Shown in pieces: positions 13,880 to 16,800 of a stretch of 64,000 nt of DNA; within the stretch, counting starts at the first letter, position 1, and each line of letters begins with the position of its first letter. Where the stretch lies: NCBI RefSeq assembly GCF_003019035.1, contig NZ_CP027447.1; one strand, given 5' to 3'. The notes under the pieces were generated by a model, which searched no databases, was not told the origin of the DNA, and saw only the letters and a program-made list of their open reading frames with translations. This DNA is from Escherichia coli (GTDB lineage Bacteria; Pseudomonadota; Gammaproteobacteria; Enterobacterales; Enterobacteriaceae). Position numbers and translations under genes: made by a program.

Positions 13880-16800
13880 ATGGACGTCAGTCGCAGACAA
13901 TTTTTTAAAATCTGCGCGGGCGGTATGGCTGGAACAACAGTAGCGGCATTGGGCTTTGCCCCAAAGCAAGCACTGGCTCAGGCGCGAAACTACAAATTAT
14001 TACGCGCTAAAGAGATCCGTAACACCTGCACATACTGTTCCGTAGGTTGCGGGCTATTGATGTATAGCCTGGGTGATGGCGCGAAAAACGCCAGAGAAGC
14101 GATTTATCACATTGAAGGTGACCCGGATCATCCGGTAAGCCGTGGTGCGCTGTGCCCGAAAGGGGCCGGTTTGCTGGATTACGTCAACAGCGAAAACCGT
14201 CTGCGCTACCCGGAATATCGTGCGCCAGGTTCTGATAAATGGCAGCGTATTAGCTGGGATGAAGCATTCTCCCGTATTGCGAAGCTGATGAAAGCTGACC
14301 GTGACGCTAACTTTATTGAAAAGAACGAGCAGGGCGTAACGGTAAACCGTTGGCTTTCTACCGGTATGCTGTGTGCCTCCGGTGCCAGCAACGAAACCGG
14401 GATGCTGACTCAAAAATTTGCCCGCTCCCTCGGGATGCTGGCGGTAGACAACCAGGCGCGCGTCTGACACGGACCAACGGTAGCAAGTCTTGCTCCAACA
14501 TTTGGTCGCGGTGCGATGACCAACCACTGGGTGGATATCAAAAACGCTAACGTCGTGATGGTGATGGGCGGTAACGCTGCTGAAGCACATCCCGTCGGTT
14601 TCCGCTGGGCGATGGAAGCGAAAAACAACAACGATGCAACCTTGATCGTTGTCGATCCCCGTTTTACGCGTACCGCTTCTGTGGCGGATATTTACGCACC
14701 TATTCGTTCCGGTACGGACATTACGTTCCTGTCTGGCGTTTTGCGCTACCTGATCGAAAACAACAAAATCAACGCCGAATACGTTAAGCATTACACCAAC
14801 GCCAGCCTGCTGGTGCGTGATGATTTTGCTTTCGAAGATGGCCTGTTCAGCGGTTATGACGCTGAAAAACGCCAGTACGATAAATCGTCCTGGAACTATC
14901 AGTTCGATGAAAACGGCTATGCGAAACGCGATGAAACACTGACTCATCCGCGCTGTGTGTGGAACCTGCTGAAAGCGCACGTTTCCCGCTACACGCCGGA
15001 CGTAGTAGAAAACATCTGCGGTACGCCAAAAGCCGACTTCCTGAAAGTGTGTGAAGTGCTGGCCTCCACCAGCGCACCGGATCGCACAACCACCTTCCTG
15101 TACGCGCTGGGCTGGACGCAGCACACCGTGGGTGCGCAGAACATCCGTACTATGGCGATGATCCAGCTGCTGCTCGGTAACATGGGTATGGCCGGTGGCG
15201 GCGTGAACGCATTGCGTGGTCACTCCAACATTCAGGGCCTGACCGACTTAGGTCTGCTCTCAACCAGCCTGCCGGGTTATCTGACGCTGCCGTCAGAAAA
15301 ACAGGTTGATTTGCAGTCGTATCTGGAAGCGAATACGCCGAAAGCGACGCTGGCTGATCAGGTGAACTACTGGAGCAACTATCCGAAGTTCTTCGTTAGC
15401 CTGATGAAATCTTTCTACGGCGATGCCGCGCAAAAAGAGAACAACTGGGGCTACGACTGGCTGCCGAAGTGGGACCAGACCTACGACGTCATCAAGTATT
15501 TCAACATGATGGACGAAGGCAAAGTCACCGGTTATTTCTGCCAGGGCTTTAACCCGGTTGCGTCCTTCCCGGACAAAAACAAAGTGGTGAGCTGCCTGAG
15601 CAAGCTGAAGTACATGGTGGTAATCGATCCGCTGGTGACTGAAACTTCTACCTTCTGGCAGAACCACGGCGAGTCGAACGATGTCGATCCGGCGTCTATT
15701 CAGACTGAAGTATTCCGTCTGCCTTCGACCTGCTTTGCTGAAGAAGATGGTTCTATCGCTAACTCCGGTCGCTGGTTGCAGTGGCACTGGAAAGGTCAGG
15801 ACGCGCCGGGCGAAGCGCGTAACGACGGCGAAATTCTGGCGGGTATCTACCATCATCTGCGCGAGTTGTACCAGGCCGAAGGTGGTAAAGGCGTAGAACC
15901 GCTGATGAAGATGAGCTGGAACTACAAGCAGCCGCACGAACCGCAATCTGACGAAGTAGCTAAAGAGAACAACGGCTACGCGCTGGAAGATCTCTATGAT
16001 GCCAATGGCGTGCTGATTGCGAAGAAAGGTCAGTTGCTGAGTAGCTTTGCGCATCTGCGTGATGACGGTACAACCGCATCGTCTTGCTGGATCTACACCG
16101 GTAGCTGGACAGAGCAGGGCAACCAGATGGCTAACCGCGATAACTCCGACCCATCTGGTCTGGGGAATACGCTGGGATGGGCCTGGGCGTGGCCGCTCAA
16201 CCGTCGCGTACTCTACAACCGTGCTTCGGCGGATATCAACGGTAAACCGTGGGATCCGAAACGAATGCTGATCCAGTGGAACGGCAGCAAGTGGACGGGT
16301 AACGATATTCCGGACTTCGGCAATGCCGCACCGGGTACGCCAACCGGGCCGTTTATCATGCAGCCGGAAGGGATGGGACGCCTGTTTGCCATCAACAAAA
16401 TGGCGGAAGGTCCGTTCCCGGAACACTACGAGCCAATCGAAACGCCGCTGGGCACTAACCCGCTGCATCCGAACGTGGTGTCTAACCCGGTCGTTCGTCT
16501 GTATGAACAAGACGCGCTGCGGATGGGTAAAAAAGAGCAGTTCCCGTATGTGGGTACGACCTATCGTCTGACCGAGCACTTCCACACCTGGACCAAGCAC
16601 GCGTTGCTCAACGCAATTGCTCAGCCGGAACAGTTTGTGGAAATCAGCGAAACGCTGGCGGCGGCGAAAGGCATTAATAATGGCGATCGTGTCACTGTCT
16701 CAAGCAAGCGTGGCTTTATCCGCGCGGTGGCGGTGGTAACGCGCCGTCTGAAACCGCTGAATGTAAACGGTCAGCAGGTTGAAACGGTGGGTATTCCGAT

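Follow-up and report, generated by a model that had tools for sequence, protein, structure and literature searches.

It was concluded that the in-frame TGA codon at positions 14465-14467, together with the hairpin downstream of it, is almost certainly the selenocysteine-recoding site of the E. coli fdnG gene. The site was analyzed in a stretch of E. coli DNA of 64,000 nucleotides (64 kb), referred to here as the window, and all coordinates are positions in this window. Since the UGA codon and the hairpin are the known selenocysteine codon and its insertion signal, the fdnG gene is intact. The finding holds and was known before, being recorded in Rfam (RF01989), RefSeq and PDB (1KQF), and it belongs to textbook biology; therefore nothing new follows from the site, which is one of the three classical selenocysteine sites of E. 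coli. The value of the result is mainly in annotation, as simple ORF prediction would break fdnG in two or label it a pseudogene, although this selenoprotein gene is intact. The features of the site and of the surrounding operon are listed in Table 1.

Table 1. Features of the fdnG recoding site and of the fdnGHI genes, with their positions in the window.
Feature	Position	Strand	Basis
fdnG, formate dehydrogenase-N alpha subunit	13880-16927	+	Translation, TIGR01553, RefSeq, 1kqf_A
TGA codon 196, read as selenocysteine, molybdenum-ligand position	14465-14467	+	Sequence, 1kqf_A alignment, homologues
SECIS element, limits of Rfam SECIS_3 (RF01989)	14462-14520	+	Covariance-model match
Lower stem, 5' arm (CG and GACCAA)	14470-14477	+	Minimum-free-energy fold
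Lower stem, 3' arm (UUGGUC, bulged G 14508, CG)	14502-14510	+	Minimum-free-energy fold, pair counts
Lower stem, main pairs (GACCAA with UUGGUC)	14472-14477 with 14502-14507	+	Minimum-free-energy fold
Lower stem, outer pairs (C-G and G-C; G14508 bulged)	14470 with 14510, 14471 with 14509	+	Minimum-free-energy fold
Unpaired C between the lower stem and the GG/CC pairs	14478	+	Minimum-free-energy fold
Upper stem-loop, putative SelB-binding minimal element	14479-14496	+	Folds, cross-species pairing, fdhF geometry
Upper stem base (GG with CC)	14479-14480 with 14495-14496	+	Minimum-free-energy fold
Bulged U (+17) between GG/CC and AGCAA/UUGCU	14481	+	Minimum-free-energy fold
Upper stem top (AGCAA with UUGCU)	14482-14486 with 14490-14494	+	Minimum-free-energy fold
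Apical loop GUC (G23 at 14487, U24 at 14488)	14487-14489	+	Minimum-free-energy fold
fdnH, iron-sulfur beta subunit	16940-17824	+	TIGR01582 (482.3 bits), RefSeq
fdnI, cytochrome b gamma subunit	17817-18470	+	PRK10179 (486.1 bits), RefSeq

The translation of fdnG resulted in one reading frame of 1015 codons and a stop, in which the sole internal stop was codon 196. This number follows from the ATG at 13880, because (14465 - 13880)/3 equals 195. The internal stop was located between NQARV and HGPTVASLAPTFGRGAMTNHW, and a twin-arginine motif, SRRQFFK, was found near the N-terminus of FdnG. In the mechanical list of open reading frames the gene was split into 13880-14467 (195 amino acids) and 14516-16927 (803 amino acids), both on the plus strand. 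The preliminary description of this DNA had stated that the TGA divided the gene into two parts of one frame, and the coordinates and the shared frame were both confirmed by translation. Two open reading frames on the minus strand, 14054-15223 and 14410-14631, were taken as mechanical ones within the coding region.

Further, the identity of the gene was investigated. A profile search, performed with the internal stop replaced, matched FdnG to the FDH-N alpha equivalog TIGR01553 in one stretch (residues 2-1014, profile positions 1-1009) with 1623.9 bits against a cut-off of 814.2. RefSeq holds a single fdnG coding sequence spanning the TGA (WP_012311994.1, 1015 residues), which carries no pseudogene flag. 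The PDB chain 1kqf_A ('formate dehydrogenase, nitrate-inducible, major subunit'; 1015 residues) matched residues 1-1015 of FdnG, and its non-standard residue was located exactly at position 196, aligned with the UGA codon. The same codon was aligned with the Sec position of selenocysteine-containing Desulfovibrio-type FDH chains. The product of fdnI exceeded the cut-off of the FDH-N gamma model PRK10179 (339), whereas the FDH-O gamma model gave 268.1 bits, under its cut-off of 341; hence the operon was assigned as fdn rather than fdo. In RefSeq the fdnGHI genes were flanked by yddG upstream and by yddM-adhP downstream, which is the arrangement of the K-12 fdn locus. The gene had earlier been named fdnG and the TGA equated with the selenocysteine at position 196 of formate dehydrogenase-N; the name is upheld by the TIGR01553 match, by fdnH and fdnI downstream and by RefSeq, and the position by the codon count and the non-standard residue of 1kqf_A.

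The region was found to be nearly universal within the species. At least 80% of the 3.5-kb region around the UGA site was shared by 5425 of the 5426 complete E. coli genomes, where it was annotated as fdnG, fdnH or yddG. The 120 nt around the UGA codon had an identity of 99% or more in 5406 of the 5433 matching E. coli records, and the 3.5 kb were 100% identical to E. coli SCU-301.

The window was colinear with E. coli SCU-301 (99.989%) over positions 1-28310 only, and colinearity of the whole window with that genome was rejected. The sequence TGTATTGATTCACTTGAAGTACGAAAA started at 28311, and from this position to at least 52000 the DNA matched a Mu-like transposable prophage at about 98%. The genes annotated in this prophage included a transposase, a Gam protein, Mor activators, a DUF935 protein, a Mu-like gpT head subunit and a tail sheath. 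In 33 E. coli genomes this prophage was integrated elsewhere in the chromosome. The insertion point in the window mapped within ddpA of SCU-301. No return to the chromosome was seen between the prophage and the end of the window.

The element downstream of the UGA codon was identified by a covariance-model search. SECIS_3 (RF01989) was matched over the full model (1-59) with 84.3 bits against a gathering score of 63 (E = 1.8e-19), and this was the only gathering-level Rfam match in the whole 64 kb. Membership of the fdhF-type family SECIS_2 (RF01988) was rejected, as the window gave 28.8 bits against a gathering score of 70. Sub-threshold Rfam matches to STnc320, TarB and SdsR at 18460-18532 were far under gathering and were judged to be chance; they fall on a terminator-like hairpin between the convergent fdnI and yddM genes.

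The hairpin was recovered in the minimum-free-energy fold, as the preliminary description had anticipated, and the AGCAA/UUGCU and GACCAA/UUGGUC stems drawn there proved to be real. Other parts of that drawing had to be revised: the last G of its AGCAAG strand is the loop base G23, and the GG/CC pairs and the bulged U, which are the most diagnostic part of the element, had been omitted. The lower stem reaches to about 14510 with G14508 bulged, and the end of the element, formerly set at 14508, is superseded by the longer range covered by the Rfam model.

The geometry of the element was compared with two published descriptions, numbering positions from the U of UGA as +1. In the dissected fdhF element, the upper stem-loop has 17 nt and is separated from the UGA codon by 11 nt, with U17 and G23 as SelB contacts (PMC8659212). 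The upper stem-loop of fdnG begins at +15, likewise 11 nt (14468-14478) past the UGA, and it contains the bulged U17 and places G23 and U24 in the apical loop. The general model of the bacterial SECIS specifies a loop of 3-9 nt with a G in its first two positions, an upper stem of 4-16 bp, a distance of 16-37 nt from the UGA to the loop and a minimum free energy no higher than -7.5 kcal/mol (PMC13188914). The fdnG element was within all these limits, with a GUC loop (3 nt, G first), an upper stem of 7 bp, a gap of 19 nt between the UGA and the loop (14468-14486) and an energy of -12.7 to -13.8 kcal/mol.

The folding stability as such showed no excess over chance. A 61-nt stretch folded at -19.9 kcal/mol with a z-score of -1.25, and 25 of 200 shuffles were equally stable or better. 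The stability was not counted as support, because this z-score is unremarkable for the composition. The above-chance signal is the covariance-model score together with the pairing and covariation across species.

Homologous sites were collected by searching genome contigs with a degenerate DNA pattern for A-R-(V/I)-(TGN)-H-G-P-(T/S)-V-A, which resulted in at least 120 loci, 119 of them usable. The codon at the Sec position was TGA in 104 and TGC or TGT in 15 of the 119 sites among the matches listed, a sample that was phylogenetically clumped, with many Pseudomonas, Burkholderiales and Enterobacterales. The UGA was thus kept across many bacterial genera. The nucleotides G15, U17, G23 and U24 were present in 103-104 of the 104 UGA genes among the matches listed, the search pattern itself having fixed several columns up to +20.

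The pairs were counted in 61 distinct FdnG-type UGA sequences, drawn from the matches listed and aligned without gaps. In this set 99.1% of the cells of the upper helix were paired. Columns 21 and 33 formed GC in 48, AU in 9 and GU in 4 of the 61 sequences, and columns 24 and 30 formed AU in 40, CG in 18 and GC in 3, with no unpaired case at either pair. Columns 21, 24, 30 and 33 all fall on third codon positions, in Val, Ala, Leu and Ala codons, so the compensation at both pairs was entirely synonymous. When the partners were shifted by 1-3 columns in either direction, the pairing fell from 91-92% to 26-57%, and none of 500 shuffles attained the observed pairing or covariation score. Additionally, G15, the last base of a Thr codon (ACG), and U24, which ends a Ser (AGU) or Gly (GGU) codon, were invariant, whereas neighbouring third positions varied freely.

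The lower helix was paired less completely, at about 85% across the same 61 sequences among the matches listed, and in two alternative registers: sequences of the Enterobacterales type pair A12 with U45, and those of the Pseudomonas and Burkholderiales type pair C12 with G44. The Rfam consensus register was rejected for the lower stem of E. coli, as it would contain A12-G44 and A8-C48, which are not standard pairs. The minimum-free-energy register of E. coli is one base off the Rfam consensus, with G14508 bulged, and fits the Enterobacterales. As the Enterobacterales fit the shifted register and the Pseudomonas and Burkholderiales the Rfam register, it was concluded that the lower stem is real and variable in register.

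All six upper-stem pairs were present at the fixed distance in 67 of 71 distinct UGA sequences among the matches listed. An intact upper stem was found in none of the 15 cysteine-codon homologues among the matches listed, which formed at most 4 of the 6 pairs and of which 14 belonged to the FdhF or archaeal type and not to that of FdnG. The structure downstream of the UGA codon, which the preliminary description had expected to be conserved, is therefore conserved with compensatory changes and absent from the cysteine homologues, although the lower helix is the weaker part. The synonymous covariation and the contrast between Sec and Cys codons illustrate cleanly how a coding sequence can carry an RNA signal, and are not a discovery.

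The selenocysteine machinery was searched for in the 5426 complete E. coli genomes, and selAB was found in 5425, selC (tRNA-Sec) in 5424 and selD in 5425 of them. The selAB, selC and selD genes did not occur within the 64-kb window. At the level of the species, the machinery for Sec insertion into FdnG appears to be available. To go by its title, a 1991 work by Berg and co-workers, which is ref. 73 of PMC13188914, reported the incorporation of selenium into FdnG of K-12.

We propose that the hairpin directly 3' of UGA-196 would fold during translation of the fdnG mRNA, and that SelB carrying GTP and Sec-tRNA(Sec) would bind the upper stem-loop at 14479-14496. On arrival of the UGA codon, the tethered SelB complex would hand the Sec-tRNA(Sec) to the A site, beating release factor 2. 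Selenocysteine would enter at residue 196, and translation would run on to produce the 1015-residue catalytic subunit of formate dehydrogenase-N, with the predicted Sec-containing stretch ARV-U-HGPTVASLAPTFGR. Insertion of Sec at UGA by the SelA/SelB/SelC/SelD pathway is described elsewhere (PMC13188914). Both SelB binding and actual selenocysteine insertion in the present strain would be expected by analogy with this established pathway (PMC13188914, PMC8659212).

Two other readings of the interrupted frame were considered. If the TGA were an inactivating nonsense mutation, fdnG would be a pseudogene that yields only a 195-residue fragment, and the break that a mechanical ORF caller makes at the TGA is what would be seen. 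The probability of this was judged to be vanishingly small, because the TGA, within a sequence context that is 99% identical or more, is retained in 5406 of the 5433 E. coli records that matched, and it is also found at 104 of 119 homologous sites in other genera among the matches listed. This conservation within E. coli and across genera agrees with the view of the preliminary description that the gene is not a pseudogene. Moreover, the 803 downstream codons are still open, the family profile matches in one stretch, RefSeq sets no pseudogene flag, and the full-length protein has been crystallised (1kqf_A). The in-frame ATG at 14516 might alternatively mark the start of a second gene, so that a 195-residue protein ending at the TGA would be followed by a separate one of 803 residues. 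This arrangement has a probability next to nil: the 16 codons that separate the TGA from this ATG (HGPTVASLAPTFGRGA) rank with the best conserved in the family, and both the single-stretch match to the profile and the PDB chain run across them, and the ATG itself is the conserved internal Met of GRGAMTN.

It was also considered that the hairpin might be incidental, a by-product of amino-acid conservation or of gene conversion between fdnG and fdoG, with the UGA read in another way, for example by a near-cognate tRNA-Trp. The peptide HGPTVASLAPTFGRG is indeed strongly conserved, and the weak z-score of the folding energy would be in line with such an origin. The longest identical run between fdnG and the K-12 fdoG was 71 nt (window 14462-14532) and included the UGA, the next longest being 35 nt. 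Counting in favour of the SECIS element, all 19 synonymous-capable codons after the UGA were identical against a background of 58.5%, which has a probability of about 4e-5 if the codons are independent. As this run passes the hairpin by about 22 nt, it fits gene conversion as well as it fits RNA constraint; something besides the hairpin, either conversion or an additional constraint, could have kept the identity. However, amino-acid conservation does not account for the covarying synonymous third positions without a single unpaired cell, nor for the invariant synonymous G15 and U24. The cysteine-codon homologues encode the same HGP(S/T)VA motif, and none of the 15 among the matches listed carries the hairpin. 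An incidental hairpin was accordingly judged highly improbable, and the UGA with its SECIS element is retained as the selenocysteine-recoding site.

The site was finally compared with its known counterparts in E. coli. In the K-12 fdnG, the 59-nt SECIS element and the position of the UGA were identical to those of the window, and the synteny yddG-fdnGHI-yddM-adhP was the same. The two genes differed by 60 of 3048 nt and by 4 residues (D127E, F342L, A366E and A666S), all of them outside the element, and nt 560-680 of the gene were free of differences.

The preliminary description had suggested comparing the element with those of fdoG and fdhF, and both comparisons supported its assignment. The K-12 fdoG of formate dehydrogenase-O carries the identical 59-nt element with the UGA at codon 196, and the Rfam family and score were the same. 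The fdoG gene is a paralogue at another locus, next to fdoHI-fdhE, and shows 74.8% nucleotide and 76.9% amino-acid identity to fdnG.

The fdhF element is related but belongs to SECIS_2 (RF01988), with 87.1 bits at its own UGA-140, and is the experimentally dissected model element. Both the fdhF and the fdnG elements have the 11-nt spacing between the UGA and the upper stem, GG/CC pairs flanking the bulged U17, and G23 and U24 equally far from the UGA. In contrast, the sequences of their lower stems are unrelated, and the upper stem-loop of fdhF is 17 nt long with a 4-nt GGUC loop, whereas that of fdnG has 18 nt. In the fdnG element, the A at 22 pairs with an extra U26, which results in the 3-nt GUC loop, or in a 5-nt AGUCU loop if this pair opens. 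It is conceivable, though rather doubtful, that the 18-nt variant of fdnG and fdoG is functionally distinct from that of fdhF, and that a different affinity for SelB might rank the three formate dehydrogenases of E. coli in their access to selenium.

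The perfect match between fdnG and its K-12 paralogue fdoG was found to extend over 71 nt (14462-14532 in the window), overshooting the 3' end of the SECIS hairpin by ~22 nt. Among the loci listed, third-codon positions beyond ~14510 varied freely across species, and for this reason the additional identity may be due not to an RNA constraint but to gene conversion between fdnG and fdoG.

In the UGA-containing formate dehydrogenase genes of loci L017, L065, L078 and L114 from the cross-species scan, which belonged to Actinomycetota, Acidobacteriota and others, position +31 (counted from the U of UGA) was G, not C. 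Hence, U17 need not bulge but can form a U-G pair within an uninterrupted helix of 8 bp (GGUGGCCA/UGGCCGCC), and judging by this predicted pairing those phyla may employ a different mode of SelB recognition. Further, an FdhF-like paralogue carrying a cysteine codon (motif ARVCHGPSVAGLQ...) coexisted with Sec-type formate dehydrogenase genes in several Enterobacterales among the matches listed. These copies (L013, L020, L037, L047, L061, L072, L075, L100 and L123; genera including Yersinia, Citrobacter, Enterobacter, Superficieibacter and Klebsiella) contained no hairpin.

The FNR box consensus is TTGAT-N4-ATCAA. The ATG of fdnG is preceded, at a distance of ~65-78 nt, by TTGAT-TTCG-CGCAA (13802-13815), which is similar to this motif, and such a predicted site fits the anaerobic induction of fdnGHI.

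Further features of the window were collected in the table.

Features of the window around fdnGHI
Feature	Coordinates	Strand	Description
narU-narZYWV locus	217-8353	-	nitrate reductase Z and nitrate/nitrite transporter
LRR genes	8663-11245	-	a single intact gene for a leucine-rich-repeat (LRR) protein, plus two yddK-like LRR pseudogene fragments
Porin gene	11409-12509	-	intact, 366 aa; 'ompC' in the matching RefSeq record
Mu-like transposable prophage	28311-64000		junction 28310/28311; starts with TGTATTGATTCACTTGAAGTACGAAAA

The prophage split ddpA at 28310/28311, as judged against strain SCU-301, and its first bases are presumably the left end of phage Mu; the right end lay outside the window, past 64000. 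In 33 E. coli genomes, prophages of ~98% identity were present elsewhere on the chromosome, and these matching prophages encoded a transposase, Gam, Mor, a DUF935 protein, the gpT head subunit and a tail sheath.

The narU-narZYWV locus was separated from fdnGHI by ~5.5 kb containing only the LRR protein genes, the porin gene and yddG. Both yddK-like fragments were frameshifted or incomplete according to the annotation of the matching record. A terminator-like hairpin was located within the fdnI-yddM gap, where Rfam matches on both strands (STnc320, TarB, SdsR) were sub-threshold. This gap spanned ~51 nt in the window (18470-18521), whereas that of K-12 was ~407 nt (6992-7399 of the fdn locus, L004), being longer by roughly 356 bases. 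The two strains also differed next to yddG, which the intact porin gene adjoined in the window, whereas K-12 carried only a short yddL fragment at that site.
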